Shown in pieces: positions 4,002 through 58,548 of a stretch of DNA of 64,000 nt (the first letter of the stretch is position 1; the number at the start of each line of letters is the position of its first letter). The notes under the pieces are model-generated. The model ran no database searches. It was given only the letters and a program-made list of their open reading frames with translations, and was not told the DNA's origin. The stretch lies in UHGV virus genome UHGV-0125199; one strand, written 5' to 3'. Source of the stretch: a virus. Position numbers and translations under genes: made by a program.

Positions 4002-4304
4002 TTACATGCTCCGGTACAAATCTTCATATTTAAATCGCTCCATTTCTTTCTTCTGTTTCTGAATCTTAATTGCCTGATCACAAATAATCTCGCGTAACAT
4101 TTCAATGTCTTGTTTATGCATATCAGTAGACGTATTAGCCATTGTATTTGTTTTTATCAATGAACAAATACACTCCATACATTCTGTCATATCATCAACA
4201 GTAATATCTGATTGACATCCGTTTTCTACCATCAAATATAATTCACTCAAATTTTTGTTATATTGTCTAATTGTATCGAAATTTTCTTCAGATAATTTTC
4301 TCAT
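4002..4304 (-). CDS. hypothetical Cys-containing protein
   Basis: ORF track. The overlapping 3857..4105 ORF probably starts at an internal Met (MKICTGACKNC...). Confidence 0.4.
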   Translation of the reverse strand: MRKLSEENFDTIRQYNKNLSELYLMVENGCQSDITVDDMTECMECICSLIKTNTMANTSTDMHKQDIEMLREIICDQAIKIQKQKKEMERFKYEDLYRSM

Positions 4305-5230
4305 TATTCACACCTCGCTTTATCACACTCATGAAATCTTAATAACATGTTATATTTTTCTTTGCCAAATATGTTTTTCCATTTATTTTTAGTTTTTTCC
4401 GTGTTCCAATTAAAAGGCATCATGTGATAATTAATTAAAAAACAACAATCTAACAAAAAATCATCGGTATTATATTCTTCAAATGGATTATGTAATGTTG
4501 TTAAAACACAATACGATCCGACGTTTTCATGTCCAAAATAATGAGCAATCCCATTTTCATCAATCGTCTGTGTGCACAATTTACCAAAATCATGTATTTT
4601 TGCACCAAGAAGAAAACCGCTTTTATATACATCATAAGGATGAGCCAAATCTGAAAACTTGTTATATGTAAAATCACAATGGTCTTCTAAATACATATTG
4701 TGGTGCGGATTTTTTTGATCAAATCCTGTCATTGATATCATAACTGCATTTGGAAGGATTTTTTCAGCATATGAATATCCCATATCATGAATAATAATTT
4801 CACTAAATCCTTCTTCTTTAAAAGGAATTTGAAATCTTCTTAACTGCTTTTCGAGTACATATTCTGGTACTGTATGTTCTCTATTCTTATTATCTTTAAC
4901 ACAATCTTTGTATTTCTTAGGTACAATATAACAAATCTTCTCAACATCCAATTTTTTCACGTGCTCAACAATCGCGCGTCGTGACTTTATCGTGATATTC
5001 GTTGCATCTGCAATTACATTTTTATTCTTATTTAATGATTCTCTTATTCTCTTATTAAAAATATTAAACACTTTTTCATTATCAGATTGATTTTGGCATG
5101 ATCCAAATAATTCTTCTCTAATTGCATCTGAAGATACAATCTCTGCATTATATTTGATAGCTAAATCTTTTGCAATGCTGGACTTTCCGCTTCCAGAAAG
5201 TCCACACATAATAAATAATTTTGGCTTCAT
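4304..5230 (-). CDS. polynucleotide-kinase-like P-loop kinase fused to an HD phosphohydrolase domain (RNA end-healing enzyme candidate)
   Basis: N-terminus MCGLSGSGKSSIAKDL is a Walker A motif with T4 Pnk-like context. C-terminus carries HD-domain His/Asp motifs (AKIHDFGK, GHENVG). The start abuts the RNA ligase stop. Confidence 0.6.
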   Translation of the reverse strand: MKPKLFIMCGLSGSGKSSIAKDLAIKYNAEIVSSDAIREELFGSCQNQSDNEKVFNIFNKRIRESLNKNKNVIADATNITIKSRRAIVEHVKKLDVEKICYIVPKKYKDCVKDNKNREHTVPEYVLEKQLRRFQIPFKEEGFSEIIIHDMGYSYAEKILPNAVMISMTGFDQKNPHHNMYLEDHCDFTYNKFSDLAHPYDVYKSGFLLGAKIHDFGKLCTQTIDENGIAHYFGHENVGSYCVLTTLHNPFEEYNTDDFLLDCCFLINYHMMPFNWNTEKTKNKWKNIFGKEKYNMLLRFHECDKARCE

Positions 5231-6535
5231 TTACATTGCTTCCTCCATCAGTTCTTCAGCCTCTTCCATATCCGGAACATCTGAAGTATCTTTAATAATT
5301 GATTCAATTACCTTAAACTCAAACACTTTGTCCTTATAAGCTGTAAATGATTCTCTATTGTCAATACGTACAACCACACCTTCAGCAATGTGCGTTCTTC
5401 CAATTTCGTCTGCCGGCATACCAGATAAATATTTATTCACTCTTTCCATTAGATCTTCTTTTGTTGTATAAATAAATTTTTCTAATTCTGGAACATATTT
5501 TACACCAAGTTTATCACACCAAATTTTAACCACTTCCCAAGGAACTTCCATTACTGTTCCATCACCGGTTGTCATAGTCATACGATAAACATACATCTCA
5601 GATTCTCCTGGCTGACAACCATAAGAAAATGTTGTCTCTTTCCCAAACTTCTTTGTAAACTCTTTATCTTTGACTTTTGAATTTGATGCAGAACCCATAA
5701 TTGGTGTAGTCTCATTTACATATCCTACAATTTCGTAAAACACTTCACATCCTTCAGGTAATTTATCCTTTAATAAATCATGATATTTTTTTCTGAATGC
5801 ATTATCAGAATAATATCCATCTGTGCTATTCAAATCTTTAATTACAACTCTTCTACTTCCAGACACAACAGAAATTTCTTTTGTCTGTTTCTGTTTCATA
5901 TGTAATAATTCTCTCAATTTATTGTTCTTCTTTGTGATTTTTAATGTCTTAGCAGTACGAGCAGAAGTTCCATGAAGCTTACGTGTAATATAGATCGTAT
6001 CGCCAGGCTTAAAAGAATTTAAATTATATGCAAGCTGCGCAGTATCTTTATGTTCTTCAAAAAATGGATAGGAAATATTTTCTTTATACTTCTCTTTCTT
6101 TTTATTAGAGTTAATATTACTCCTTTTATTTCCTCTTGGAATATACTTTTTACAAATCTCATGTCCTCCAAGAACTGTAATTTGATCTCCATCTTTCAGT
6201 TTATTAATATCAGTATATTTCGAAAGTGTATCAATTGGTAAAATCAGTCCTTCAGATTTTTCACCTCTTAATCTGATTGCGGTTACATTTCTCTTATTTG
6301 GATCCATATAACCACCAACGTTATTACCGTTTTCATCCTTTGCTCTCACAAGTTTGTTGTCATTTGCATACTCTTCAGAAAGCTGTCCATCAGACGGAAA
6401 GAATACAACCCTCTGTCCATCTTTATAACTCAAATCCACAATTACATTCTGTCCGAATACCTCTACACACTGTAAACGGTCAGCATTGCTATGTTTTCTT
6501 AATCCTTTAAGTGTTGTAATATATCCACAATACAT
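5231..6535 (-). CDS. ATP-dependent RNA ligase (KxHG nucleotidyltransferase motif, Rnl2/Rnl5-like) with N-terminal OB/tRNA-binding-like domain
   Basis: ITRKLHGTSAR matches the lysine-adenylylation motif I (KxHG) of T4 Rnl2-type ligases. EVFYEIVGY resembles motif IV. N-terminal GEKSEGLILPID resembles tRNA-binding OB folds. Confidence 0.55.
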   Translation of the reverse strand: MYCGYITTLKGLRKHSNADRLQCVEVFGQNVIVDLSYKDGQRVVFFPSDGQLSEEYANDNKLVRAKDENGNNVGGYMDPNKRNVTAIRLRGEKSEGLILPIDTLSKYTDINKLKDGDQITVLGGHEICKKYIPRGNKRSNINSNKKKEKYKENISYPFFEEHKDTAQLAYNLNSFKPGDTIYITRKLHGTSARTAKTLKITKKNNKLRELLHMKQKQTKEISVVSGSRRVVIKDLNSTDGYYSDNAFRKKYHDLLKDKLPEGCEVFYEIVGYVNETTPIMGSASNSKVKDKEFTKKFGKETTFSYGCQPGESEMYVYRMTMTTGDGTVMEVPWEVVKIWCDKLGVKYVPELEKFIYTTKEDLMERVNKYLSGMPADEIGRTHIAEGVVVRIDNRESFTAYKDKVFEFKVIESIIKDTSDVPDMEEAEELMEEAM

Positions 6536-10542: not shown

Positions 10543-12237
10543 TTACTCTGTCTGTGGATTTATAAAATTTCCGGAATTAATATCCTCATATAACCTATCA
10601 AGTGCAATCTCAAATGCGCCAACACCTGAGAAAAAACTACTCAATTTCAAATTATCAAACAAATAAGGCATAGCTTTATAAAGCTCTACATATATGTAAT
10701 AAAGAACATCTACCACAATTGAATTGCCTGCCTGCTTATACAATTGACTATTTGAAACTCCTACTTTGTGTGCTGCGTCAAAATCTTTATCAGAAAATCC
10801 CATAAGTCTGAAGCACTCCTTTGGAGTTAGTTTGCGAATACGGATTGGAGATTCAATCTTACAAATACCAGTTTCTGTCGCAGTAATAGTTGGACTAATA
10901 TTCCCATCATCCTGGACTCTACCTCTTCTCGTTTTGCTATCTGGATAAGACAAATCTGCAACACCACCAATTTCACATTCGATATATCCCTGTTTTGTTG
11001 CTTGTTTGATTGCAACTTTGTTTCCTTCTCCTTTATTCGTAGTTAATGTTGGAGACAATCCATTTTCCGAATAAACAGACCCATTCATACCATTACCAGA
11101 TGGGTTGATATTCCCAATTTTTAGAACAGCAGTTCCTTCAGATTTTCTGTTGCTAATTCCTCTATCCTCTCTCGCTGCAATGCAATTTGCATATTCGATT
11201 AACTCTGGTTTATTATATGATTTATCAATTCCACATAATACATGTGGCTGTCTTCCACCACCTTGCATAGTCGTTAAAGTAGGACTAATATGACTATCAT
11301 CCCACACGCCTCCGGCATATCCTGTTCCGAAATCTTCTCGATTTACATTTCCAATAAATTTAGGTTGGTCAATTTCTACAACTCTTTTATCACCACATGA
11401 ATCAATTGTTCTTAATGCACCACATACATCATTTTTATAAGTTCGAAGCCCCTCATCTTCTCTTTCTTCACACACAAATTTATCATTTTGACTTTTCTCA
11501 TATTTACTTTCAATACTCGATATAAATTTTTGGGTTTTCTCATCAGAAATATAGAACTTCTCATCGACTTCATCTTCCAATAAATCCTTCAATCTTAATC
11601 CATTATCAAAAGGTTCTGGAAATTCAAACTTACCATTATCCAAATCCTTTTTAATAAATAACAGATACACACGTTCTCTGTTCTGTGGAATTCCATAATT
11701 TTTAGCATTCAGAACCTTCCAATATACGTTATATCCATATTCTTCTAATTCATCAGTAAATAATTTAAATGTTGTGTCTTTAAACTGTTTTCCAACGATA
11801 TTCTTTACATTTTCATAAATTCCAAAATTAGGTCTATTTGATCTAACTACTCGTAAATATTCAACAAGAAGAGATGATCTTGTCTTTTCAATATTTTTAC
11901 TTCCACAATTCGGACAACAATCTCTTTTACTCCAATGAACTGTTAATGGATTATATTCAAAATGCTTTCCATTATCATCCACACAATCTTTACAAGTCCA
12001 CACAGAGCCTTTTTGTTTACCAGCCACACTGAAATCCTGGCACGGTGATCCTCCACAAATCATATTAAAATTATCTAACTCAGTTTCATCAACCTTTGTA
12101 ATATCGCCAAGATTTTTACTTTCATCAACATTATGAATAGCACAATAACTTTTTGTTGCATATTTATCAAATTCACAAAAATTTACAAGTTCCCACTGTT
12201 TATCTGAATTATATTTTTTATCCTTATTTTCTACCAT
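10543..12237 (-). CDS. C5 cytosine-specific DNA methyltransferase with motif I at the C-terminus (apparent circular permutation)
   Basis: GGSPCQDFSVAG (motif IV PCQ), ENV (VI), QNRERV (VIII), RKLTPKECFRLMGF (IX), SNSQLYKQAGNSIVVDVL (X), then LKLSSFFSGVGAFEIALDRL (motif I FxGxG) as the last ~45 aa. The N-terminus begins with the post-motif-I segment EFDKYATKSYCAIHN. The C-terminal translation was re-checked by hand. Confidence 0.8.
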   Translation of the reverse strand: MVENKDKKYNSDKQWELVNFCEFDKYATKSYCAIHNVDESKNLGDITKVDETELDNFNMICGGSPCQDFSVAGKQKGSVWTCKDCVDDNGKHFEYNPLTVHWSKRDCCPNCGSKNIEKTRSSLLVEYLRVVRSNRPNFGIYENVKNIVGKQFKDTTFKLFTDELEEYGYNVYWKVLNAKNYGIPQNRERVYLLFIKKDLDNGKFEFPEPFDNGLRLKDLLEDEVDEKFYISDEKTQKFISSIESKYEKSQNDKFVCEEREDEGLRTYKNDVCGALRTIDSCGDKRVVEIDQPKFIGNVNREDFGTGYAGGVWDDSHISPTLTTMQGGGRQPHVLCGIDKSYNKPELIEYANCIAAREDRGISNRKSEGTAVLKIGNINPSGNGMNGSVYSENGLSPTLTTNKGEGNKVAIKQATKQGYIECEIGGVADLSYPDSKTRRGRVQDDGNISPTITATETGICKIESPIRIRKLTPKECFRLMGFSDKDFDAAHKVGVSNSQLYKQAGNSIVVDVLYYIYVELYKAMPYLFDNLKLSSFFSGVGAFEIALDRLYEDINSGNFINPQTE

Positions 12238-16972: not shown

Positions 16973-17725
16973 TCAACTTTTATCACTCTCGTGTTTAAAA
17001 CTAAACGACGGCATCATTTGCAATTTAAACAAATTCTTTTCGTGCATCTGGTCAATTTTCTTCTTTAATTGTTTATCATCAATTAGACCTGTTCTGATAT
17101 ATTTATCGAGAACATCATATGTAAATCCCAAGTTATCTTCATCTGTTTTATCACAAAGACCATCGGATGGAATTTTCTCAATGAACTCTTTCGGAAGTCC
17201 TAATGCATATCCGACTTCCTTAACTTCCGTAACAGTCAGATTAGACAATGGACTGAAATCACCAACACTATCTCCCCACCTTGTACTATATCCAATCCAA
17301 TCTTCAGATAAATTACATGTATTCGCAACTCTTCCATTTACAGTCTGAGACACAGCATATAATGTAGCCATTCTAATTCGCGCCGGCAGATTGATAGAAG
17401 ACTGTCTGCTCCAGTGATCGTCCAATTCAGACTTCACTTCATGTTTAATATCTCTTACTGCATTGAAAATATTCACCTCAATATTTTCAATTCCAAGATG
17501 ATCAACCACCTTCTTTGCAACATCAATATCTTTTTGTTTACCGTTTGGCATTAGGACTCCAAGCACTCTTTCTTTTCCTAGAGCTTCAACGCAGAGTGCA
17601 GCAACAATCGTCGAATCCTTCCCTCCTGAAATACCAACAACTGCTTTACAACCACTTCCGTTCTCTTTAAAGAAGTTCTGGATCCATTCAATAATTTCAG
17701 TTTTAATTTCATTTGCATTAAACAT
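16973..17725 (-). CDS. nadE: NH3-dependent NAD+ synthetase (NadE, PP-loop ATP pyrophosphatase)
   Basis: GISGGKDST PP-loop (SGGxDS). Colinear matches to NadE blocks (PARIRMATLYAVS; STRWGDSVGDFSPLSNLT; DEDNLGFTYDVLDKY). Confidence 0.75.
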   Translation of the reverse strand: MFNANEIKTEIIEWIQNFFKENGSGCKAVVGISGGKDSTIVAALCVEALGKERVLGVLMPNGKQKDIDVAKKVVDHLGIENIEVNIFNAVRDIKHEVKSELDDHWSRQSSINLPARIRMATLYAVSQTVNGRVANTCNLSEDWIGYSTRWGDSVGDFSPLSNLTVTEVKEVGYALGLPKEFIEKIPSDGLCDKTDEDNLGFTYDVLDKYIRTGLIDDKQLKKKIDQMHEKNLFKLQMMPSFSFKHESDKS

Positions 17726-19215
17726 TAAAATTCTCCTCCATGTAGTCTATCTCTAATTTCTTTTAACGATTGTTCTTTTAATAATTCTCCATCTTTAAAG
17801 ACTGTAATTAACATATTTCCACGTTTTTCATAATCAGTAGCCTGTTTCCATGTAAGCTCATCCTCGTAATAAATACTTCCATCATATCGTGTATATACTC
17901 TGCAGCATCCTTTCTGTGATTTCTTAAAACCACCGTCCTTAGGATTTTTAAAAATTGGAGTAGCTTTTCCATCAATCTCACAATATGTTGCTTTAATACA
18001 AGAACTAAAAGTGTCTCTTGTAAATGGTTTTAATACTCCGTCTTCTTCGATGCACTGAAATGAAAACGACCCAACTCCTAATGCTACATTTGAACACGCA
18101 AATCCATTTTTCATAAGAATTCTGTAAATTTCTTCACATCTCTGTACTGTAATTGAGTCACCGTAAATTGCTTTTACATGTGGATCTAACACTTTATACC
18201 CCTTGCTATTAACTGTCCCACCAAATTCTTCCCATAATTTAAATACAGTTTTTGTTACAACTTCTACACAATCTCCAGAATCTCCACGCATCAACATGCA
18301 TCCGTTATGATTCATGATTTCTGTTTTTAATTGAGGAAGAATATTATCGATGATATTCCAATAATCATAAGAGTCAAGAACTGCTGAAAAACTTGTGTTT
18401 GGATAGATTTCAGTAAGTAATCTTCTTAATAATGTAATCTCGTCTCCATCTACCGCATAATTACTGCACATTACAGAATGTTCTGTGCTAGGACTTCCAT
18501 ATGCAACAGGTTCTTTTGTACAATCACAAAAATAATTCTTTTCAAGATAAGGAATAGTTGGAACGGTTGCTGTATTCAAAAATGATAAACACCACCCAGC
18601 GCCTGCTTTTACCGCTGATTCCAAACACTCTTCTCCCCGGAAGTCAAAGGCACCAAGAGCTTTTGATCTTGGAATATAGTCATCACAAGTTAGACCATAA
18701 TAGTGATTAACGATGCTACGATAGGTCATTCCTACTGTTGCTGCTAACATTGGATGCCACATTTCTGCCGAGATAAGACTTTCTAAACTCTGAGGTAACC
18801 ATGCAAAATCTTTATGTGTATTTGTAATACCAAACATAGGCACATGCATTGGAACAATTGTACCTTCTGGCAATGAAACAATCTCAATTGGCAAATATCC
18901 CAATTTATGTAGACTTTCAATCTTGTCAATTTTATACGCATCCTTACCAAGTGATGCATCCATAATTCTTTTATATTCATAAATAATTTCTTCAAAAGGT
19001 TTGTCAAAAAATTCTTCATTGAAATAATCAATCAGATACGTTTTAATAAACCCCTGTAATCCAAACATTACTACTTTATCCCATCGTTTTACACGACTCA
19101 TTCTAGGAGTAAAATAGGAAACTGATTTTGTAATATTTTCAGGTAGCATTTCTGCATGAACCGCTTTATAAAAGTCAATTAATAACATTGGATTTGTCTT
19201 ATTCGTCATATTCAA
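17725..19215 (-). CDS. nadV: nicotinamide phosphoribosyltransferase family enzyme (NadV/NAMPT; possibly a Namat-type nicotinamide ADP-ribose transferase)
   Basis: LLIDFYKAVH...SYFTPR...VVMFGLQ...LPEGTIVPMHVPMF...FDFRGEE are NAMPT-family blocks. 496 aa. Start overlaps the nadE stop. Confidence 0.8.
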   Translation of the reverse strand: MNMTNKTNPMLLIDFYKAVHAEMLPENITKSVSYFTPRMSRVKRWDKVVMFGLQGFIKTYLIDYFNEEFFDKPFEEIIYEYKRIMDASLGKDAYKIDKIESLHKLGYLPIEIVSLPEGTIVPMHVPMFGITNTHKDFAWLPQSLESLISAEMWHPMLAATVGMTYRSIVNHYYGLTCDDYIPRSKALGAFDFRGEECLESAVKAGAGWCLSFLNTATVPTIPYLEKNYFCDCTKEPVAYGSPSTEHSVMCSNYAVDGDEITLLRRLLTEIYPNTSFSAVLDSYDYWNIIDNILPQLKTEIMNHNGCMLMRGDSGDCVEVVTKTVFKLWEEFGGTVNSKGYKVLDPHVKAIYGDSITVQRCEEIYRILMKNGFACSNVALGVGSFSFQCIEEDGVLKPFTRDTFSSCIKATYCEIDGKATPIFKNPKDGGFKKSQKGCCRVYTRYDGSIYYEDELTWKQATDYEKRGNMLITVFKDGELLKEQSLKEIRDRLHGGEF

Positions 19216-20029
19216 ATACCTCTACTTTCTCATGTTCTTTTGTAAAAATACTATTTGTCGTGAACACTCTGTCAATCAATCCACTACTCAATACTTCTCC
19301 TTCGAGGATTGTATTTTCACAATGAGATACATATAGATAAATCTCCTTTGCTCCCAGTTCCTTTAACTTAATAGCTGAATGATAAAATGTTCCGCCACGA
19401 CTTGAAATATCATCTACAATTAAAATTTTTCTTCCTTTAATCAGATTTGTCATGCCTGAAACATCTAGTCCTTTAATCTCCCCTGTTTCCCAATCGCGCT
19501 TTTTAATACCAAAAGCATAAGGAAGATCAAACATTGTAGAATAACGTTTCATAGCTCCTTCGTCCGGATAGAACATTGTAAGATTATTTGTGCCACCAAT
19601 GTATTCACTTTCAATCGCTTTCCACACATATTTGTCTGGATATTTAATTAAAACTCTATCAATAAGAGCTTCGCTTACAGATGAATGTGGATCTAATACT
19701 GTTACAGAATCAAAATTCAGCCAATTAATAACTTCTGCAAAATACTTTAATGTAAATACATCTTCTGTTGTTTTAACACGATCTTGACGACTGTTTGGAA
19801 TATATGGCATATTCAAGTACAAATTTGTAATACCATGAGAATTAAGGTGTTTGACAATATAAATCAATGTCACCAATTCTTCATTATCTTCAAACAACCA
19901 GGTAATAGTTGCTTCTCTGTAATTTTTAAAATCATAAGAAACATCCTCTTTAAGCAAGAGAGTTCCATCTGGAAATTTCTTTGTATTTACTACTTCTCCA
20001 TTAATTTTAATCATAAGACTTTTCTCCAA
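19199..20029 (-). CDS. ribose-phosphate pyrophosphokinase-like enzyme (Prs homologue; candidate ADPR-PP synthetase Adps)
   Basis: ILIVDDISSRGGTF phosphoribosyltransferase-type PRPP/nucleotide-binding loop. Prs-like size; overlaps the nadV start. Confidence 0.7.
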   Translation of the reverse strand: MEKSLMIKINGEVVNTKKFPDGTLLLKEDVSYDFKNYREATITWLFEDNEELVTLIYIVKHLNSHGITNLYLNMPYIPNSRQDRVKTTEDVFTLKYFAEVINWLNFDSVTVLDPHSSVSEALIDRVLIKYPDKYVWKAIESEYIGGTNNLTMFYPDEGAMKRYSTMFDLPYAFGIKKRDWETGEIKGLDVSGMTNLIKGRKILIVDDISSRGGTFYHSAIKLKELGAKEIYLYVSHCENTILEGEVLSSGLIDRVFTTNSIFTKEHEKVEVFEYDE

Positions 20030-20579
20030 TCACATTAATTTGACAAGATTTCATCACTTCTAACGCAGCTCTATGCTTTTCAGGAGTGACACCAGCGCAG
20101 CACGACGCATCGACTGTAATTTCCATTTCTGGCACCCATGCTTTAATTAATAGAGCATTCGACACTACACAAATATCAGTACATACACCAACAAGTTCAA
20201 CGCTATCATAATCATTACTAGCAAAACCGCCATGGATACATTCTGCAAGGTAATTACTTCCAAATCTATTTTTATTAATTACGTGTTTTGCGTAAGATTT
20301 TAATTCGTCTACAATTTCCCATCCATTTGTTCCAATAACACAATGCTCTACAGGCAATTTTTTACCTTCCTGAGTATCTAAATAACCATCCAAATGTGTG
20401 TCTTTTGTGAAGAAAACTACATCACCGTTATTGTAATATTCTTCAATTTTTTTCTTTACATCCGGAACAATTGCAACTGCTTCTTTTGTTCCCAAATTTC
20501 CACTCACAAAATCGTTTTGCATATCTACTACAACTAAAACCTTCATATTCCCTATTCTCCTTCTACCAATTCCAAGCAT
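20007..20579 (-). CDS. isochorismatase-family hydrolase, nicotinamidase (PncA)-like
   Basis: MKVLVVVDMQNDFV N-terminus typical of PncA/isochorismatase; conserved Asp/Lys/Cys positions (D..K..C in VGVCTDICV). Confidence 0.65.
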   Translation of the reverse strand: MLGIGRRRIGNMKVLVVVDMQNDFVSGNLGTKEAVAIVPDVKKKIEEYYNNGDVVFFTKDTHLDGYLDTQEGKKLPVEHCVIGTNGWEIVDELKSYAKHVINKNRFGSNYLAECIHGGFASNDYDSVELVGVCTDICVVSNALLIKAWVPEMEITVDASCCAGVTPEKHRAALEVMKSCQINVIGEKSYD

Positions 20580-20833
20580 TCTTTCAGAAAGTTTCTTACT
20601 CTATCACGCCCACTTTCGCAATATATACCTGTATAACATACCGGCTTATTCCAGAACGCCATCCATGCTCTTTTAAATCTTCCAATAATTCCTTTAAAAT
20701 CTCCACCGCAATATGAATCCTCAAAAGAGATTTCAAAATCAGTTGAATTTTCCGTTGTATATTTAGAAAACACAACTGCTTCTGCATTATCATCACATCT
20801 GATGGTGGCTGTTTTTACATTGTTTTTCTTCAT
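20552..20833 (-). CDS. hypothetical protein (first gene of NAD operon)
   Basis: ORF track; overlaps the pncA-like start. Confidence 0.4.
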   Translation of the reverse strand: MKKNNVKTATIRCDDNAEAVVFSKYTTENSTDFEISFEDSYCGGDFKGIIGRFKRAWMAFWNKPVCYTGIYCESGRDRVRNFLKECLELVEGE

Positions 20834-25762: not shown

Positions 25763-27167
25763 TTAAGCTATTTGCTTCTTATATTCTTTCTCTTTAGCCA
25801 TGTTCAAAATATTAATTGCAGCATTAATGTCTCTATCATGAATCGCTCCACATTCAGGACAAATCCAGCCTCTTATTTTTGTATCTTTTGTATTTACGTT
25901 CACAAAACCACATTTACTGCATGTTTGTGTTGATTTTTTATATTGTCCAATTGCAACAACCGGTACACCATATTCTTCACCTTTTCTTTTTAACAAAGTA
26001 AGAATTTCTCCCATCGCTGCATCAGATAAATTATCATTTCTCACTCTTGTTTTTCTTGACATACATATCTTTAACCGACAAAGTTTCTATTCCAATAAAG
26101 TCTGATCTTTTTATAACTTCTAACACCATATTCTCCATATGATATTTTCTTTGTCGTGTTACCTTTCTTTCTAATTTTGCTTTTTTAAATTTTGTTTCTA
26201 TGTATCTTTTAGAAGGCTTTAATTCAACATTTTCTTTTCTTAATTCACTTAATCTTTTCCTAAACTCAATATTGCTATACCCTTGTCTTCTGGATAATTG
26301 CCTATTTAACATCTCACGATGTTGACGAACACTTCCGTCTCTACCATTTTTGAATCTAGGATTATCATATTTTGTTCCGTCTGATAAAGTCATCAAAGTT
26401 GAAATTCCAACGTCAATTCCTATTTCTCTTTTCTCTTCTTCTACTTTCACAATCCTATAAATATCTTTCATACATAGCTGTAAAAAGTAATCGCCACAAT
26501 TATCTTTTTTTACAGTTGTTAATATTTGTTGTTTCTTATGTAAATTCACATATTCTTCAAAATTCATCATGCATGATGAATCAAACCAGACATTTTTTAG
26601 ATATCCTTTAATCCCCCTAATCTTTACCTTTCCGATTTTAGCTAAATTAAAATATGCTACATTTTTATTCTCCTCATTAAAGCTCATTTTTCTCAGAAAT
26701 TCTTGATATGTATAACTTGTTCTCGGATGTTTCTTTGAATAATATGGAGGTTTACTGTTCTCAATCGGTCTTTTAACTCCCTTTCCATTTGTTTTCTTAT
26801 TAGAATTTTCTCCACTCACTTGAGCATCCAATCGCTTCGACAAATCACACAAGAAAACTCCATTCTCACCAGACAAAGCACCCGCTGGAATCAATTTAAT
26901 GTCTTCTCTCCTACTTCTTAACACATCCAAATACTGTTTCTTTGCAATAGACTTTACATCCGGAAAATGAACAGTTTGTCCTGCATTCTTTTGGTCTGGT
27001 CTTTCAATTGTATTAACTTTATTTTCAAACATATCGTAAACAGCCATATTACACGCCTTATGTAAAGCCAAAATAATTCTATCTATTAATTCACTCTGCT
27101 CTTTATTCGGATACATTCTAAAATTGAAAGTATATACCGGTATTTTTATAACTTTTTCAACTAGCAT
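25763..27167 (-). pseudogene. tnpB: IS200/IS605-family TnpB (OrfB; RuvC-like nuclease with C-terminal zinc finger), split by a -1 frameshift in an A5 run at about 26051-26055
   Basis: N-terminal ORF has RuvC-I (IGIDVGISTLM) and RuvC-II (IGIETLSVKDM) blocks. The overlapping C-terminal ORF has LSDAAMGEI, CSKCGFV...[19 protein letters not shown]. Deleting one A of AAGAAAAACAAG restores a continuous TnpB. A structured GC-rich region 25650-25760 downstream resembles an omegaRNA/right end. Confidence 0.8.
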
Positions 27168-28846: not shown

Positions 28847-30328
28847 TTATCCTACAAGTTCATACTTGTTCCTTAAAAATTCACCAATATCATTTACCAT
28901 GTATGTATAATTTTCTTTTTGATCTTTAATATATGTAGAATTTCTGTTAAAGAAACTTCCCATCCACTCAGGAATTTCTAAATCTATGTTTGTTTCAAAG
29001 CTGTACGCAACAACAGCAAGTAAAGAATTCATGTTTTCAGGCTCAAGAAGCTTAGATGAACCGTCAATTTTTTTGTCCTTCCGTAGTTTTTTTACCCAAT
29101 CATTTAAAGAAATCTTGTAAATTTCAACATCTTCACCAATCACATCTTCTTTAACATTTTCTTTGATAAATTCAAGAGCGTTCTGGTCTGAAGAAGCATT
29201 ATCTATTACATTATTCTCTCCCACTTCGACAAGACTTTCTTCATCTTCTTTAATATGTAAATACTCTTTCATAAGAGCAGTTAAGATGTTAATTTTCTCT
29301 TTTAAAATAGCCTTACCTTTTGTATGACGATCCTCATTTAATTTGTCAAATGTTGCTCCATTTACATCTTTTTTATATAAAGACTTTTCAAATTCTTCTA
29401 CAAAATCCTTAAACTTAATATCATCTAATCCAAATTTAGCAAACTCTTTAAACACAGGGATCCAAACAATAACATTTTTTGGCACAAACACTTCTGTGAA
29501 ATTATCTTTGCACACAGATTCAATCCTGCTAAAATATTCATTTACAGTATCAAAGTGTTCTTCCGTTGCGTTCTCATTTAGATATTTGCTCATGTTCTTT
29601 ATTGCACTTTTCCAGTTATCAAAGAAAAACGTTGTCATGACAGATTCACATACAAGTCTTTCTCTAATACCTTTCGATTGCTGCTTACCGGAACAAGACA
29701 TACAATTTTTAAAGAATTTATTTTTCTCAGATATTGTCCTTATTTTTCTTGCATGTAAATCAATATAAGTAAATGCTTTCTGAGATGTATTCATTCCCAA
29801 ATGATTGTTGTATCTTCTCACCAATTTACTAATCTGTGACATCGTACAATGCTGATGTATTGTAATGTCAATCTGATAATCATCAAACATTTTTTTCAAT
29901 TCTGGCGGTAACATTTCATATGTTTTTCTTCTCAAATCATATTCAACAGATTCCCAAATAACTTTTCCGTATTCATCTTTACAGATTTTATTATTTTCAT
30001 CTTTCTTTTTTCTCTGATATTGGATAATTGGATCTTCTAAAGCAGCTGTAATTTTATAGTTTTCATGCTTAAATTTAATCAACGCAGAACTTCTTTGCAT
30101 TCCATCAACAATGTATTGCTGCACAACGTCTTCGTCCAAATCTTCTTCTCCTAAGATAATTGGGGGAATATAATCATCAGTTAATACAGTTTTGATTAAC
30201 TCATTCACCATTCCATTTTCCCAACAAAACAGTCTTTGAACGTCCTGATTATCACTAATATCTTCTTCCACAATCTTTTCTAAATAAGAATCTAGCGATA
30301 ATGTCTTTTTTCTAATTTTCTTTGCCAT
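28847..30328 (-). CDS. DUF262 (ParB-like nuclease superfamily, GmrSD N-terminal-type) domain protein
   Basis: DVQRLFCWENGM and IVDGMQRSSAL match the DUF262 QR-x-x-W and DGQQR motifs. No C-terminal DUF1524/HNH motif was seen. Confidence 0.5.
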   Translation of the reverse strand: MAKKIRKKTLSLDSYLEKIVEEDISDNQDVQRLFCWENGMVNELIKTVLTDDYIPPIILGEEDLDEDVVQQYIVDGMQRSSALIKFKHENYKITAALEDPIIQYQRKKKDENNKICKDEYGKVIWESVEYDLRRKTYEMLPPELKKMFDDYQIDITIHQHCTMSQISKLVRRYNNHLGMNTSQKAFTYIDLHARKIRTISEKNKFFKNCMSCSGKQQSKGIRERLVCESVMTTFFFDNWKSAIKNMSKYLNENATEEHFDTVNEYFSRIESVCKDNFTEVFVPKNVIVWIPVFKEFAKFGLDDIKFKDFVEEFEKSLYKKDVNGATFDKLNEDRHTKGKAILKEKINILTALMKEYLHIKEDEESLVEVGENNVIDNASSDQNALEFIKENVKEDVIGEDVEIYKISLNDWVKKLRKDKKIDGSSKLLEPENMNSLLAVVAYSFETNIDLEIPEWMGSFFNRNSTYIKDQKENYTYMVNDIGEFLRNKYELVG

Positions 30329-31709: not shown

Positions 31710-33215
31710 TCTAAAAAATTGCATCAGAAATAAGCGTTTAGAAACTTGTCCACACGATTGAACTTCTCATGGCTAAAGCCACGAGATTCTTGGGAACTCT
31801 TTTCTATTGAAAAGATATTTACCAAGCTAACTCGATAGTTCCTACCGTTATTATTTATTTCGTTACGCTACTTCTAATATCCTTAATCCTTCATTTAGAA
31901 TATTTATCGCAGCATTTATATCTCTATCGTGATGAGTATGGCAACAAGGACAATCCCATTCTCTAACATTAAGATTTTTAGTTTCTTTATTCACATATCC
32001 GCATACACTACAAATTTGAGAACTCGCAAAGAATTTATCTACTTTAATAACCTCTCTACCATACCAATTAGATTTATATTCTAGTTGTCTGACAAACTCA
32101 GACTATGATACGTCCACAATAGATTGAGCAAGTTTATGATTTTTAATAATATTTTTTACTTGTAAATCTTCAATACATATCACATCATTACCCCTAACAA
32201 TCTTAGTAGATAATTTCTGCAAGAAGTCTTTTCTCTGATTTGCGATATGTTCCTGAAGTCTTGCAACCTTAATTCTTGCTTTATTACGATTTGAACTACC
32301 TTTTGATTTTCGAGATAATTCTCTTTGTAATTTTGCAAGTTTATCTAAAGACTTCTTTAAATACTTTGGGTTTGGAATTATTTCTCCTTCAGATGTTATA
32401 CAAAATTCTTTTATTCCAAGATCAATACCAACTGCATTTTTTGTTTTAGGTAATGGTTGAATTTCAATATCAGTACAACAAAGCGACACAAAATATTTTC
32501 CACTTGGTTCTTGTGATATAGTGGCATTAAGTATTCTACCTTGTGGTATTAGCTTATTTTTCGTTTTTACCATTCCCAACTTTGGAAGTTTAATGTATTT
32601 ATTGCAATATTGAATATTACCGTTTACACATTTTGACTTATAGGAATATCTATGTGTTTTCTTTGATTTGAATTTTGGATAACCTGTGTGTTCTTTAAAG
32701 AACTTCTGATATGCTGAATCTAAATCCCTAAGAGAAGATTGAAGAGCAGTGGAATCAACTTCTTTAAGCCATTCGAGTTCCAATTTCAGTGTCTTCATAT
32801 CATTTGCACATTGTACATATGAAAATGTTTCTTTATTTTTCTCATACATTTCGATGCGTTTTGCAAGGTATTTATTATATACAAATCTACAAGAACCAAA
32901 AGTTTTAGTAATTATTTCTTTTTGCTTCTTATTTGGATATATTCGATATTTATAAGCTTTTTCCACCGATTTCACCTCGCTTCCGCTTTTGATTTTTAAT
33001 ATACTTTCTAATTTGTTCTTCTGTGTTTTACACACAATACAATATGATATTGAATTGAATATACATAACCCCTACCATGTGTTACTTCCATGATTTGTCC
33101 CCTCATATGTATATTCTCCATTTGGCGATTCATCTCATCACTAAAGTGACGAGTGTTCTCGCCTAATCTAATAAAAAGTAAATTTCAATATTCAGTTTTC
33201 CAATATTTGGAATTT
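31710..33215 (-). mobile_element. IS605-family (IS1341-like, tnpB-only) insertion sequence; approximate boundaries
   Basis: tnpB flanked by subterminal hairpins: ctcatggctaaagccacgag at about 31768, and ggcga...cactaaagtga...tcgcc at about 33128-33165. Confidence 0.4.
31863..33035 (-). pseudogene. tnpB: IS200/IS605-family TnpB, second and divergent copy, with an in-frame TAG at 32103-32105 replacing the conserved Trp codon
   Basis: N-terminal part has RuvC-I AVGIDLGIKEF and RuvC-II VICIEDLQVKN. The same frame continues after TAG as [37 protein letters not shown]...[19 protein letters not shown] (zinc finger, RuvC-III). Canonical TnpB has W at the stop position (DxxWxEF). Confidence 0.8.
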
Positions 33216-39998: not shown

Positions 39999-41114
39999 TT
40001 ACCATGATAACCTTTTTTCTTCTACTTTTTGCATTAAATCACTCAAAATTTTCATACCTGTTTCTGTATTACATTCAGAATTAACTCTTCCTGTACTAAA
40101 TGCTTCAAGAATGATATCTCTTAAATCATTTGTTTTCAAGGCAATTACAGGAATGTTATCAATTACTGGAGAAATACCAGCGTCAATTTCTTCAATATAT
40201 TTTCCAACATCGTTGAACGCCTTTGCTCCTTTCTGTGCAAAAATTCCAGAGTACCGTTTTGTTGTTTCTTTATTAGCATGACCTAAGATTGTTTGAAGAA
40301 CATCCAAACAATCTGGATCAAATTGATTAATTTCATGCATAATATATCCAAACGTTTTTCTCATACTGTGTGTACTGATGTCTTTTAACCCATTGAAATC
40401 TGCTGCTTTCTTTAATTCATATCTGAATGACGCAGCTTGTTTTTTTATAGCCTTTTCATACTCTTCTTTTGTTCTAGCATCAATTTTCAAATCTGTATTC
40501 AAAATATCTTCTTTTAAGTGTTCCATAGGATTGATTTTTTCTGTATCACAATACCATTCCAAGTATTTCCAAACAGTCTGACTTACTGTGATTTTAATAA
40601 CTTTATCTGTCTTTTGCTCAATCAGGGTGTCCAAGATGTCCTTTTTCTTTCCATTTTCGTAATAGAAATCAGACCACTTTAAAGATAATGTGTCTCCAAT
40701 ACGTCTAGCCAACAAAATTCCAAGCATAAAGACAAGGAATTCTTTATTCTTGCTATTATCTCTAAAATAATCCATCATGTCCTTAATCTCAGATGTTTTA
40801 TAAAATGGTCTTACCAGTGTTGTTCCAGATTTTTTGGTACTACGAACCACCTTAAATGGAATGTAACATTCTCCATCAAAAATACTTTTAATCCAAATTT
40901 CTGACTTCCCGTTTGTAAATTTTAAAATATTTTCAGTAGAATCTGAATCTTTAATATCATTTTCGTCATCTTCTGTTTCAACAGGATAAAATTTTTCTTT
41001 TTCCATAATCTGATCAAGTTCTTCATTTGTATATACGTTTCCATTCATTTTCTTTTCTAATTTGTCTACTAATTTCATTATAATATACCTCCTAAAATCC
41101 CAATGCTTCTGCAA
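39999..41114 (-). CDS. int: tyrosine site-specific recombinase / phage integrase
   Basis: Catalytic signature RIGDTLSL (Arg I), HSMRKTFGY (H-x-x-R), LGHANKETTKRY (Tyr). Confidence 0.8.
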   Translation of the reverse strand: MQKHWDFRRYIIMKLVDKLEKKMNGNVYTNEELDQIMEKEKFYPVETEDDENDIKDSDSTENILKFTNGKSEIWIKSIFDGECYIPFKVVRSTKKSGTTLVRPFYKTSEIKDMMDYFRDNSKNKEFLVFMLGILLARRIGDTLSLKWSDFYYENGKKKDILDTLIEQKTDKVIKITVSQTVWKYLEWYCDTEKINPMEHLKEDILNTDLKIDARTKEEYEKAIKKQAASFRYELKKAADFNGLKDISTHSMRKTFGYIMHEINQFDPDCLDVLQTILGHANKETTKRYSGIFAQKGAKAFNDVGKYIEEIDAGISPVIDNIPVIALKTNDLRDIILEAFSTGRVNSECNTETGMKILSDLMQKVEEKRLSW

Positions 41115-55464: not shown

Positions 55465-56988
55465 CTATGCTTTATGTCCACCAATTTGATTATTCCTATC
55501 TATTGCAGTAGCTCCTTCTTGTAGACTCATGCCTTTTAAAATTGCATTTTTCCCAAATTTTTTCTTGATATCCAAGACAGCTTTCTGAATATCTTTTTCT
55601 TTTTTAAGTTGTTCCTGGTCTACTGCATTTTCCTTTTCAGCAATCATATCAAATAAATTAAGCTGTTCATATCTATCCTTTTTCGCTTCCTTTTCGCTGA
55701 TCACATGATTTGCAGACATATTGATTCTTCTGACAAGTAAATTTTCGTCTACAATTCTACTGAATAAATCAAGCACAGCTCTTACAATCACGCTAGTAGA
55801 AGACGTATAACTATCTAAATTTACTGTTCCATGAGCATGTTTTGGAATCTTTCTCCCATATTGATCAAAAGAGAACTCACCTTTATACTTACTCATTCTG
55901 GAAGAATCTAATAGATTTTCTCTATCGTAGCCAATCGTTAATACAATCTGATCCGTTACAAGATTCTTACTAACCAAATCTAAGACCAGCATCTCAGTCA
56001 TTTCACGTACAATAATTTTCGTTTTATCAAAATCAGTTCCACAGTGTAAAACCTGTCCGCTTCCAATACTATTGCTCTCCGGCTTATATGCTTTTATATC
56101 TGAAATTGTAACCGGTTCATAACCCCATGCATGGTCAATCAAAAGCTCTGTATTTTTACCAAACATTCTACGCAGCAAGTCTTCATTATAATAATCTGAC
56201 TCTTTTCCAAGAGAACATCTTGCGATATCGCCCATTGTATATAGTCCTACAGATTCTAATTTTTTAATATACCCTCTACCTACTCGCCAAAAATCAGTCA
56301 ATGGTTTATGTTCCCATAGCTTCTCTCGATATGACTTTTCATCCAATTCTGCAATTCTCACACCATTTTCATCTGCAGGTATATGTTTGGCAACAATATC
56401 CATTGCTATTTTACAAAGATACAAATTAGTTCCTATTCCTGCGGTTGCAGTAATTCCAGTTGTATTCAAGACATCCAATATCATCTTCTGTGCAAGTTCT
56501 TTTGCGGATAATCCATACGTATTCAAATAAGAAGTCACATCCATAAATACTTCATCAATAGAATATACATGGATATCTTCAGGAGCAACATATTTCAAAT
56601 AGATATTATAAATCCTTGTGCTATATTTCATATAAAAAGCCATACGTGGTGGAGCCACAATATAATCAACTTTTAAATCCGGATTTGTATCAAGAATTTT
56701 TTTACTATATGACTGTCCGGGAAACTCATTCTTTTTCAATCGATATAATCTTGTTGCATTAATTTCTTGCACCCGCTGCACAACCTCAAATAATCTTGGT
56801 CTTCCAGATATACCATATGATTTCAAAGACGGCGTTACTGCAAGACAAATTGTTTTCTCTGTACGACTGTTGTCTGCAACAACTAAATTCGTATCCATTG
56901 GATCCAAGCCACGTTCTATACACTCTACTGATGCGTAAAAACTTTTTAGATCAATCGCAATATATGACTTATTATTCATGCAGCACAC
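55465..56988 (-). CDS. Y-family translesion DNA polymerase (UmuC/ImpB/UvrX-like)
   Basis: N-terminal IAIDLKSFYASVE is the Y-family palm catalytic motif. Another characteristic block is SIDEVFMDV. 507 aa. Confidence 0.85.
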   Translation of the reverse strand: MCCMNNKSYIAIDLKSFYASVECIERGLDPMDTNLVVADNSRTEKTICLAVTPSLKSYGISGRPRLFEVVQRVQEINATRLYRLKKNEFPGQSYSKKILDTNPDLKVDYIVAPPRMAFYMKYSTRIYNIYLKYVAPEDIHVYSIDEVFMDVTSYLNTYGLSAKELAQKMILDVLNTTGITATAGIGTNLYLCKIAMDIVAKHIPADENGVRIAELDEKSYREKLWEHKPLTDFWRVGRGYIKKLESVGLYTMGDIARCSLGKESDYYNEDLLRRMFGKNTELLIDHAWGYEPVTISDIKAYKPESNSIGSGQVLHCGTDFDKTKIIVREMTEMLVLDLVSKNLVTDQIVLTIGYDRENLLDSSRMSKYKGEFSFDQYGRKIPKHAHGTVNLDSYTSSTSVIVRAVLDLFSRIVDENLLVRRINMSANHVISEKEAKKDRYEQLNLFDMIAEKENAVDQEQLKKEKDIQKAVLDIKKKFGKNAILKGMSLQEGATAIDRNNQIGGHKA

Positions 56989-57305: not shown

Positions 57306-57803
57306 TTAAAACTCAATTCTACAATGCAACATTATCTTTAATGGTTTATACATTTTTGAATGAAAAATTTGCGGATCAGGAAGATCAAATTCTTGATCCA
57401 CTCCTAAATCTGTTTCTCTAAGTACAGTCCCTACAACCTTCATTGACATTCCATTTTCTTCAGCTAATTTATTTATATGATGAACATAGCCATCATAATA
57501 TCCGATTCCTTCAAATTTAAATTGTACTTTTGTTTCTATCATTCTGTTTTCAGAAAATGACAAATCCTCTACAATAGGACGAGAAAATTTATTTAAATAA
57601 CATTCCTCATAGAAAGAAATAATCCTTTTGCCATCTTCTGTAATATACTTACCCTCTTTTGCCTTTTCTTTTATATCGCTTTTAACTTCCATGAAATCAT
57701 ATTCAGCAAACTTCATACCATATTGATAATCATCTTGATACTTTTCTGTAGCAGCTTCCTCCGGTGTTTTTGATATTTCATTTAATTCATCCAAAAAACT
57801 CAT
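57306..57803 (-). CDS. hypothetical protein
   Basis: ORF track; last minus-strand gene before the strand switch. Confidence 0.5.
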   Translation of the reverse strand: MSFLDELNEISKTPEEAATEKYQDDYQYGMKFAEYDFMEVKSDIKEKAKEGKYITEDGKRIISFYEECYLNKFSRPIVEDLSFSENRMIETKVQFKFEGIGYYDGYVHHINKLAEENGMSMKVVGTVLRETDLGVDQEFDLPDPQIFHSKMYKPLKIMLHCRIEF

Positions 57804-58360
57804 AGTACTACTCTCCTATTCCTTTTGATATTTACATAGTAGCACAATACTATGAATTTTTATAGAAATTTTTAAATCGTTAAGAGAATTAAAGTATGAA
57901 ACAAAGAAACCGTTCAAATATTTTTAATAATAAAGGGAGAAATGATATGAGCAAATTGTAAATAATGATTTAAGAAAATAAGGATTTAATGAAGAAGCAT
58001 AAAAGAAATTATAAAAAATTTTTCTATTTCAATTTAAATTGTATCTTTGCGTCAGCAAAGACTTTGCGAAGCAAAGTGAAACGGAGACACGAAGAAAGGG
58101 TCGCCTGCGGCTCTTTCTGAAGTGGATCCAACATTACCTAGATCTCTCTATATATAAGGAATTACGAATTTATATCAAAAAAATTATTTATAAAGAGAGA
58201 ATTATTAACTGGGGGAAGGAAGACCAAATTCATAAGTCTTACTACGCACCTTGTTCGCCAAGGCTCACAATCTGCTAGTGCGACTAAATGAATTATGCTC
58301 TTTTTTGCACTTCCCCCAGACCCCCTTCGCGCACTATAAAATGGATAAAAAATTCAATTA

Positions 58361-58490
58361 AAATCTCTCTAAACCCTTATAAACACTGGGTTTTTGTCGA
58401 AAAACATCCTTTAAAGTCTCCCTATATTATATATATATTAGGGAGAAATGAAAGGATGCGAAATCTCTCTAAACCCTTATAAACACTGGG
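58361..58490. repeat. two identical 30-bp direct repeats (aaatctctctaaacccttataaacactggg) exactly 100 bp apart, flanking an AT-rich hairpin (58418-58445); iteron/origin-like
   Basis: Copies at 58361-58390 and 58461-58490. Hairpin ctcccta-N14-tagggag between them. Confidence 0.6.
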
Positions 58491-58548
58491 AAAATTGGCA
58501 TTTTAGGTGTGCAAAAAACGATAAAAAACTAATTTAAGGAGAAAACAC

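Follow-up and report, generated by a model that had tools for sequence, protein, structure and literature searches.

The 64,000-nucleotide stretch of the virus genome UHGV-0125199 analysed here, hereafter called the window, carries on its minus strand a cassette of four genes (16973-20546). Their products resemble a nicotinamidase (PncA), a phosphoribosyl pyrophosphate (PRPP) synthetase of the Adps type, a NAMPT-family transferase related to Namat, and an NH3-dependent NAD synthetase (NadE). We lean towards reading this operon as a deamidated, four-enzyme variant of the NAD+ reconstitution pathway NARP1, which would rebuild NAD+ via nicotinic acid. Such a nicotinic-acid route had been proposed in an earlier note made from the letters of this DNA, and it is now supported by two observations: the pyridine pocket of the transferase is switched at two positions (215 and 242 of the SPbetaL1 Namat), and the switch co-occurs with NadE and PncA genes, which are absent from the loci of canonical Namat genes.

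NAD+ depletion is one of the commonest outcomes of bacterial antiviral immunity. According to the proposed scheme, a host NADase defence would break down NAD+ into ADP-ribose (ADPR) plus nicotinamide; PncA would then convert nicotinamide to nicotinic acid and NH3, and the Adps homologue would convert ADPR and ATP to ADP-ribose pyrophosphate (ADPR-PP). The switched Namat, with a putatively carboxylate-accepting pocket (Asp215Ala, Ala242Ser, Gly213Asn/Lys, His187Gly/Ser), would combine nicotinic acid with ADPR-PP to give nicotinic acid adenine dinucleotide (NaAD) and pyrophosphate. Finally, NadE would amidate NaAD to NAD+ using NH3 and ATP, the NH3 released in the PncA step balancing the NH3 consumed. 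As NaAD would be formed directly, a nicotinamide mononucleotide (NMN) adenylyltransferase (NMNAT) would not be needed, which would account for none being encoded. The use of nicotinic acid would likewise explain why PncA, whose activity would deprive a normal Namat of its substrate, is tolerated in the same operon. All enzymatic activities in this scheme are predicted from sequence, and the counter-defence role is suggested by analogy with NARP1.

The features of the cassette referred to below are the following:

20007..20546, minus strand: PncA-like nicotinamidase, 179 amino acids (aa) from the ATG at 20546; the open reading frame (ORF) is open back to 20579
19199..20014, minus strand: Adps-type PRPP-synthetase homologue, predicted ADP-ribose pyrophosphokinase, 271 aa from the ATG at 20014; the ORF is open to a TTG at 20029
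17725..19209, minus strand: Namat-clade NAMPT-family transferase, predicted nicotinate ADP-ribose transferase (nicotinic acid + ADPR-PP -> NaAD), 494 aa
16973..17725, minus strand: NH3-dependent NAD synthetase NadE, 250 aa, single domain, without a glutaminase domain
18568..18570, minus strand: codon of transferase Ala214, equivalent to SPbetaL1 Namat Asp215 and human NAMPT Asp219; from the alignment, top discriminating column
18487..18489, minus strand: codon of transferase Ser241, equivalent to Namat Ala242 and human NAMPT Ala244, lining the nicotinamide pocket; second discriminating column
18025..18054, minus strand: about 9-10 inserted residues (CIEEDGVLKP) that interrupt the clamp motif GSxΦxΦxΦTRD of the transferase, from the alignment
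19388-19414, minus strand: PP loop DDISSRGGT of the Adps-type protein, from the sequence
17612-17629, minus strand: P-loop SGGKDS of NadE (residues 33-38), from the sequence

The pyridine pocket of the transferase

In the crystal structure of SPbetaL1 Namat, Asp215 hydrogen-bonds the amide of nicotinamide and lines the pocket together with Ala242, and NAD synthesis from nicotinamide is 8.1-fold lower in the D215A mutant (PMC12774641). The equivalent residue of human NAMPT, Asp219, has been called fundamental for substrate specificity (PMC7096376). Asp215 is replaced by Ala in all 74 members of the clade to which the window's transferase belongs. An artefact of alignment was considered as the source of this replacement and rejected, as phmmer, MAFFT and hmmalign agree within the conserved block F-x-x-T-[D/A]-T-[IV]-P.

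The family was surveyed by searching 1.84 billion cluster representatives (50% identity), the best 150 of which were aligned. Positions 215 and 242 read Asp and Ala in 96 of these 150 representatives, and Ala, Ser or Val together with Ser in 48 (hereafter the switched class); other combinations were limited to a handful. A mutual-information (MI) scan of about 490 columns placed position 215 first, with the maximum possible value (MI 0.903), and position 242 second (MI 0.884), followed by positions 187, 185, 271, 213, 240, 239 and 304. Most of the high-ranking columns flank Phe189, Asp215, Ala242 and Arg306 in the sequence; they correspond to human His191, Gly217, Ser241 and Val242, and the human NAMPT substitutions H191R, G217R and A244M have been listed as blocking inhibitor binding. 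Further pocket changes in the switched class are Gly213 to Lys or Asn and His187 to Gly or Ser. Since the pocket columns rank at the top and the adenine-clamp position 396 only 17th, the focus of the functional divergence lies where the pocket faces the amide or carboxylate rather than at the donor site.

A single state change accounts for the switched class on a midpoint-rooted neighbour-joining tree, and because human and bacterial Nampt carry Asp and Ala at the two positions, the switched state is the derived one. Judged from these substitutions and the gene context, the transferase probably accepts nicotinic acid instead of nicotinamide.

Association with NadE and PncA genes

The regions around relatives of the transferase (37-97% identity) were fetched for 286 loci and their ORFs scored with hidden Markov models (HMMs) built from the cassette proteins; counts were restricted to the 182 unique loci flanked by 5 kb or more on each side. 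Among the 159 loci with a switched pocket, NadE was found in 153, PncA in 158 and Adps in 158, all three being present in 151. By contrast, the 23 loci with a canonical Namat all contained Adps and none contained NadE or PncA (Fisher's test, 5e-24, without correction for shared ancestry). NadE and PncA were also absent from 14 further canonical loci with 8-kb flanks, and most of the apparent exceptions to the coupling are contigs that end near the gene.

Three gene orders were observed: PncA-Adps-transferase-NadE in 154 loci, Adps-transferase-NadE-PncA in 31 and PncA-transferase-NadE-Adps in 5. As the partner proteins have also diverged to 38-60% identity, the set has stayed together despite rearrangement and long divergence. 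That the association merely reflects the sampling of one phage lineage is partly true, the switched class having a single origin; it persists, however, down to 37-50% transferase identity, in all three gene orders and whether the context is phage, recoded phage or bacterial-looking. The full gene set was present in five of the six early-branching members examined individually. Overall, over 190 distinct contigs, viral and bacterial, contain the set, and the arrangement is far beyond chance.

Among the bacterial-looking contexts is a compact operon that consists of a regulator with an NrtR domain, Adps, PncA, the transferase and NadE, and adjoins a chemotaxis receptor gene. The regulator (L279:128-958), which precedes the cassette, is 276 aa long and has an NrtR DNA-binding winged-helix domain (30.7 bits for a cut-off of 27). 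NrtR regulators respond to ADP-ribose. The recoded context is Phass-1 (L286, OQ749652.1), a metagenome-assembled gut phage that uses genetic code 15 and contains the same cassette with a canonical clamp, so that the variant is not confined to phages of Clostridia. The Phass-1 genome paper annotates the genes singly and gives no pathway interpretation. This phage also has a large tRNA array, including a suppressor tRNA.

Relatedness of the transferase and of the Prs-like protein

The earlier note had proposed that the transferase be compared with the Namat and NadV clades, and the Prs-like protein with Adps and genuine Prs; both comparisons came out on the side of NARP1. The transferase contains NAPRTase and NAMPT_N domains and matches phrog_448 (1e-157) and NF006629 (434 bits). 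When it was compared with all PDB sequences, the best match was the SPbetaL1 Namat 9W5W/9W5X (2e-118, 399 bits; structures described in PMC12774641), with which it shares 44% identity, followed by the bacterial NadV 9KE8 (4e-91, 309 bits) and the Xanthomonas (Xcc) and human Nampt (about 1e-45 to 1e-48, about 160 bits). A predicted model of the transferase (pLDDT 94.4, pTM 0.93) superposed best on Namat (TM 0.92, root-mean-square deviation 1.7 A), compared with a TM of 0.89 for Haemophilus NadV and of 0.86-0.87, with a deviation of about 2.8 A, for human NAMPT. The catalytic His, Arg306, Asp308, Phe189, Arg192, Asp13, Tyr15 and the phosphate-binding Gly-Ser are conserved, as are the clamp residues Arg40, Phe392, Thr398, Arg399 and Asp400. 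In the selectivity-clamp loop, TPRMSRV of the window aligns with TPRTSRV, and the stacking Arg40 is kept. By sequence and predicted fold, the transferase thus belongs to the Namat clade and not to NadV.

With the PncB/nicotinate phosphoribosyltransferase (NAPRT) family proper, the transferase scored 15.1 bits against a cut-off of 330 (NF009131). The label 'nicotinate phosphoribosyltransferase' on NF006629 and on numerous database entries denotes the family and is not evidence for the substrate. Many transferase homologues (within P0122-P0262) have lengths of 570-1114 aa and align with the query in two to four separate stretches, often broken near residue 320, which suggests inteins or other elements inserted in the gene.

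The Prs-like protein matches phrog_619 (1e-68) and misses all curated NCBIfam cut-offs for Prs (TIGR01251, 99.2 versus 113 bits; equivalog models, 40-93 versus 296-536 bits). It is 43.6% identical to SPbetaL1 Adps, 30.4% to ICP1 Adps and 23.5% to Escherichia coli Prs, the two validated Adps being themselves 30.4% identical. An HMM made only of canonical NARP1 Adps gave it 265 bits, versus 117 bits for E. coli Prs. The catalytic and ADPR-contacting residues of ICP1 Adps (Phe18, Arg87, His121, Asp161, Lys185, Asp212 and Asp213) are kept in the window's protein and in 198 members of the class, although most of the residues tested also occur in E. coli Prs, so that this test alone does not discriminate. 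The C-terminal alpha11-alpha12 module of PRPP synthetases is absent: the proteins have 271-276 aa compared to 315 aa for E. coli Prs, and the alignment stops before the module. The PP loop DDISSRGGT resembles DDLSSFGGT of SPbetaL1 Adps and not DDMIDTGGT of E. coli Prs. Judged by these sequence comparisons, the Prs-like protein groups with the validated Adps and not with Prs. SPbetaL1 Adps gave no product in a PRPP-synthase test, according to the NARP1 literature.

The adenine clamp and the ribosyl donor

The clamp of the window's transferase reads GSFSFQ-CIEEDGVLKPF-TRD, in which position 3 is still Phe and position 7 is Cys. Compared with the canonical Namat motif, the position of Tyr396 is thus occupied by Cys and the motif is interrupted; the insertion is predicted to form an ordered beta-hairpin (pLDDT > 90). 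An intact clamp, GSYTYQY[NV]TRD, is found in the early-branching switched members P0142, P0145, P0151, P0165, P0162 and Phass-1. According to this sequence comparison the pocket changed first, and the clamp insertion came later, in a subclade that includes the window.

A gene for a Poa1p/Adpp-like Macro protein is found inside 70 of the 201 unique switched cassettes (35%), compared with 4 of 30 canonical ones. It is usually located directly after the transferase gene, between it and NadE. Examples are L002:7491-8006, where the transferase is 96% identical to that of the window, and L076:7555-8178, in addition to 68 other loci; phages very close to that of the window thus have a cassette of five genes. 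Phage proteins that share 35-42% identity with the Macro protein are annotated as related to ADP-ribose 1''-phosphate phosphatase; no Macro homologue was found in the window. The Macro protein Adpp occurs in 15% of NARP1 operons and converts ADPR-1''-phosphate to ADPR for NARP1 (bioRxiv 10.64898/2026.01.28.702374). The recruitment of an ADPR-producing Macro enzyme by the cassette makes ribose 5-phosphate an unlikely input, and the ribosyl donor, as far as sequence and gene content indicate, is probably ADPR-PP. Pointing the same way are the Adps-like character of the Prs-like protein, the canonical clamp of the early-branching switched members and the NrtR-domain protein ahead of one bacterial-looking copy. 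At 15 loci (for example L148:7479-8234), the slot between transferase and NadE is taken by a 251-aa ORF with a HAD-type DFDDT motif and no Pfam match, which may encode an alternative phosphatase feeding the pathway.

PncA and NadE

The PncA-like protein matches the Pfam Isochorismatase family (4.5e-27, 95.7 bits), and its closest solved relatives are the nicotinamidases/pyrazinamidases 1ILW, 3S2S, 3O90 and 3PL1. Its triad (Asp8, Lys92 and Cys126) and metal site (Asp49, His51 and His68) align with those of the Pyrococcus nicotinamidase 1ILW and are invariant in 182 unique cassette homologues. The protein is divergent from the curated PncA equivalog, the threshold of which it misses (NF008623, 24.6 versus 174 bits); its nicotinamidase activity is therefore predicted from motifs and context. 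NadE exceeds the TIGR00552 cut-off (184.9 versus 63.65 bits) and matches Pfam NAD_synthase (5.6e-55). Its best relative in the PDB is 2E18, the NH3-dependent NAD synthetase of Pyrococcus (1.3e-39).

Layout and setting of the operon

All four ORFs were found on the minus strand at the coordinates given by the earlier note, whose description of four consecutive overlapping genes is borne out by the coordinates, the family matches and the junctions. The likely true starts, chosen from the sequence, are the ATG at 20546 for PncA, the ATG at 20014 for Adps, the ATG at 19209 for the transferase and position 17725 for NadE. For the transferase (ORF 17725-19215), the resulting length of 494 aa matches that of the database homologues. 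The overlap is 8 nt between the PncA stop and the Adps ATG, 11 nt between the Adps stop and the transferase ATG, and 1 nt between the transferase stop and the NadE start, which have TAATG in common. As a GGAG-type ribosome-binding site also precedes each of the four starts, the genes are translationally coupled.

The note had extended the operon to 20833. This holds for 16973-20546 and fails for the remaining ORF:

20552..20833, minus strand: ORF of 93 aa upstream of PncA, no family match, outside the conserved cassette

This ORF has no match in Pfam, NCBIfam or PHROGs and is kept in only the six closest contigs, being absent from all others compared; it has a good ribosome-binding site and overlaps the PncA start region.

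No terminator-like site was found between 16000 and 21800. Promoter-like sites are fewer than in shuffled sequence, which is compatible with a long polycistronic unit and otherwise uninformative. The cassette sits in a long run of minus-strand genes with a GC content of 31-35%.

The note's statement that no NMNAT is visible holds for the window, where the Pfam scan of 67 ORFs revealed no cytidylyltransferase/NMNAT family and the motif (H/T)xGH is absent from the 64 kb. Nor was an NMNAT found among the ORFs inside 190 cassettes. The possibility that one is hidden between the cassette genes was rejected, the intervening ORFs being Macro-domain, HAD-like (DxDxT) and small zinc-ribbon proteins and unknowns.

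Alternative explanations

Several points weigh against the nicotinic-acid scheme. As listed in papers citing Khan et al. 2006 (PMC4919578, PMC7096376), human NAMPT D219S is a substrate-affinity switch and D219A is inactive, not switched. The argument for the use of nicotinic acid therefore leans on the accompanying substitutions and the gene context. The altered clamp of the window's own subclade could weaken the recognition of adenine and with it a preference for ADPR-PP relative to PRPP; Namat with a doubly mutated clamp no longer shows ADPR-PP-driven activity and still works with PRPP (PMC12774641). Six switched loci (about 4%) have no NadE within 6 kb and no detectable remnant of it, and one early-branching switched transferase (L284:7239-8780, P0264) lies on a 13-kb contig without Adps, PncA or NadE. 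As the switched class arose once, the co-occurrence reflects retention within one clade and not repeated independent events. The absence of NMNAT covers 64 kb of a genome of about 160 kb, so that one may be encoded elsewhere. Finally, the second-best structural relative of NadE is 3FIU (3e-28), which we take to be a Francisella NadE that prefers nicotinic acid mononucleotide (NaMN). Among the genes near the L284 transferase are ones similar to adenylosuccinate synthetase and RimK.

The main rival is a PRPP-based Preiss-Handler salvage, in which the transferase would make NaMN from PRPP supplied by the Prs-like protein or by the host, host NadD would convert NaMN to NaAD and phage NadE would convert NaAD to NAD+, with PncA supplying the nicotinic acid. 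NadD is, to our knowledge, near-universal in bacteria, so that its absence from the phage is not decisive, and such a route would account equally well for the switched pocket and for its linkage to NadE and PncA. It would also suit the clamp of the window's subclade, which lacks Tyr396 and contains an insertion, and the PRPP-dependent activity of Namat in vitro, which clamp mutants keep (PMC12774641). However, it leaves aside that the Prs-like protein groups with validated Adps and misses the curated Prs thresholds, that SPbetaL1 Adps yielded no PRPP-synthase product, that Adps is kept in 158 of the 159 switched loci, that the early-branching switched members have a full adenine clamp, and that ADPR-making, Adpp-like Macro genes occur in 35% of the cassettes. 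We therefore regard the PRPP-based route as unlikely, if still the one to be taken most seriously. The operon might also combine two independent modules, a NARP1 pair acting on nicotinamide and PncA with NadE boosting the Preiss-Handler pathway of host PncB and NadD. Each of the four genes has a plausible stand-alone function, and NadE is found without the cassette in cyanophages, in Bacillus phage G and in Pelagibacter phage HTVC008M. Yet the nicotinamide-binding Asp is lost wherever NadE and PncA are present and kept wherever they are absent, the D215A change cuts the nicotinamide-dependent activity of Namat eightfold, and PncA would destroy the substrate of a nicotinamide-using Namat in the same operon. 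Two separate modules thus fit poorly and are improbable.

A role of NadE as an NMN synthetase fits poorly as well and appears the least probable of all: nicotinic acid and PRPP would give NaMN, which NadE would convert to NMN, and an NMNAT encoded elsewhere or by the host would complete NAD+. The model for this role is the Francisella NadE, presumably an NMN synthetase, and 3FIU has the same short form of about 250 aa as the NadE of the window. The best relative nevertheless remains 2E18 (1e-39), no NMNAT was found in the window or in the cassettes examined, and the route would require more enzymes than are encoded and ignores the associations with Adps and Macro genes. A last alternative concerns the role and overlaps with the deamidated NARP1 variant on mechanism: the chemistry would be as predicted and would serve general NAD+ and ADP-ribose housekeeping during infection or lysogeny, not counter-defence. 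The bacterial-looking copy behind an NrtR-type regulator and beside a chemotaxis receptor gene would agree with this, and bacterial NARP1 homologues of unknown role have already been reported. On the other hand, experiments have established both canonical NARP1 and its Macro extension as counter-defences, and the phage region around the operon holds an RNA ligase and kinase pair as well as a DNA methylase, all of them possible counter-defence genes. Housekeeping alone seems rather improbable.

Why the pathway would pass through nicotinic acid is a matter of speculation; salvage habits of Clostridia, an additional ATP-driven irreversible step or a pool of NADase-resistant NaAD may be imagined, and the suggestion of the earlier note that the route could escape inhibitors or sensors of the amidated one is equally speculative. 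That, beyond the predicted formation of NaAD from nicotinic acid and ADPR-PP, this detour is also an adaptive answer in an arms race and not just a reflection of host metabolism is doubtful. In such a case, NaAD might for example be a poor substrate for SIR2, TIR or DSR NADases, which would keep the ADP-ribosyl and pyridine moieties in a protected pool, or some hosts might remove or sequester nicotinamide to defeat canonical NARP1, as aRES does on the ADP-ribose side.

Distribution

A megablast search with the operon DNA gave no match among deposited phage genomes, and the closest transferases of cultured phages are only about 45% identical. Transferases with 73-97% identity are encoded on 74 uncultured viral contigs, many of 120-170 kb, and relatives are also found on 70 contigs of bacterial bins or isolates, mostly of Lachnospiraceae and Ruminococcus. 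The bacterial contigs include those of Pseudoruminococcus massiliensis, Filifactor villosus and 'Bacterium 0.1xD8-71', and one cluster of 96%-identical proteins is named from [Ruminococcus] gnavus. NadE is present in 52 of 50,697 deposited phage records and the transferase family in 2,044. About one in three of the 150 nearest family representatives belongs to the switched class, which is dominant in a large group of uncultured gut phages (Lachnospiraceae, Ruminococcus).

Other genes of the window

The window looks like a large temperate phage of Firmicutes. It also encodes YopX, an integrase (39999-41114), a Y-family polymerase, a UvrD helicase, a sliding clamp, a C5 cytosine DNA methylase (10543-12237, minus strand; 564 aa with three matched stretches), an RNA ligase and kinase pair and two TnpB-like genes. 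The AAA_33/KTI12-type kinase gene (4304-5230, minus strand) adjoins that of the RNA ligase (5231-6535, minus strand), and the two are a possible RNA-repair pair; the NAD cassette of L280 and L281 is likewise bordered by RNA ligase, AAA_33 and PolyA_pol genes. The OrfB_IS605/TnpB-like genes (26034-27167 and 32103-33035, both minus strand) have between them a gene for a GmrSD_N-domain protein (28847-30328). At about 57800-58500, GC skew and gene orientation flip from minus-strand to plus-strand genes, the Y-family polymerase gene (55465-56988, minus strand) lying before the flip and the UvrD helicase gene (59657-61534, plus strand) after it. The window's ORFs further include matches to a PemK/MazF-type toxin domain (4.4e-25), to sigma-70 region 2 and to DUF7736.

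Comparison with known systems

In the searchable text, which lacks most subscription journals, no link of NadE, PncA, nicotinic acid or NaAD to Adps or Namat was found; this covers work on NARP1/2/3/4 and NARP1-AP (Adpp), the aRES and RyDEP preprints, the NARP3 paper, the 2022 survey of viral NAD systems and the Phass-1 paper. The nicotinic-acid variant was thus not found described and is new relative to this literature; it is common in gut phages and not rare. The accessory extensions of NARP1 described in the literature searched, Adpp and RyDEP, are both on the ADP-ribose side. If the scheme is true, the operon would represent a further NAD+ route besides the described phage pathways NARP1, NARP2 and NARP3, and a new activity, a nicotinate ADP-ribose transferase that bypasses NAPRT and NadD. 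Current tools would label switched genes NARP1, Nampt or 'nicotinate phosphoribosyltransferase' without distinction, and Ala or Ser at the equivalent of Asp215/Asp219 together with Ser at the equivalent of Ala242/Ala244 could serve as an annotation signature.

The closest known system is NARP1, which consists of Adps and Namat (Osterman et al., bioRxiv 10.1101/2024.02.11.579819; Adps structures, PMC13586617). The window shares with it an adjacent pair of Adps-type and Namat-type genes, the same catalytic core and ADP-ribose as the predicted ADP-ribosyl source. It differs by the replacements of Asp215 by Ala and of Ala242 by Ser, by the clamp insertion and by the obligatory linkage to PncA and NadE; moreover, its predicted pyridine is nicotinic acid and its predicted product NaAD, not NAD+. 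Because Asp215 and the uninterrupted clamp motif, both defining features of Namat, are missing, the operon is not a plain NARP1. As in NARP1-AP, where NARP1 operons acquire accessory enzymes, a homologous Macro gene is found in 35% of the switched cassettes, including those of near-identical relatives. However, the window's operon has no Macro gene, and whereas Adpp extends the ADP-ribose input side, the extension in the window would concern the pyridine side and the final amidation.

With the Preiss-Handler pathway (PncA-PncB-NadD-NadE) the scheme would have in common that PncA deamidates nicotinamide and NadE amidates a nicotinic-acid dinucleotide. In contrast, the operon contains neither a PncB-family NAPRT (PRK12484, 15 versus 330 bits) nor NadD, both of which the Namat-derived enzyme is predicted to replace by using ADPR-PP. 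NARP2, composed of NadV/Nampt and Nmnat and known from Vibrio phage KVP40, and NARP3, composed of PnuC and NadR (PMC13464706), are similar in that NAD+ is restored by phage-encoded enzymes under NAD-depleting immunity. Both need NMN adenylyltransferase activity and keep the amide throughout, whereas the window has no NMNAT, NadR or PnuC.

The switched transferase can finally be compared with the human NAMPT Asp219 mutants, as cited in PMC4919578 and PMC7096376 (Khan et al. 2006). The position and the fold are the same, and loss of the Asp in D219S shifts the pyridine specificity towards nicotinic acid, but the human proteins are engineered point mutants of a PRPP-using enzyme, whereas the phage proteins form a natural clade in which Ala or Ser at this position is accompanied by several other pocket changes. 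The switched class therefore offers a natural experiment on pyridine specificity in the NAMPT fold, which is a drug target.

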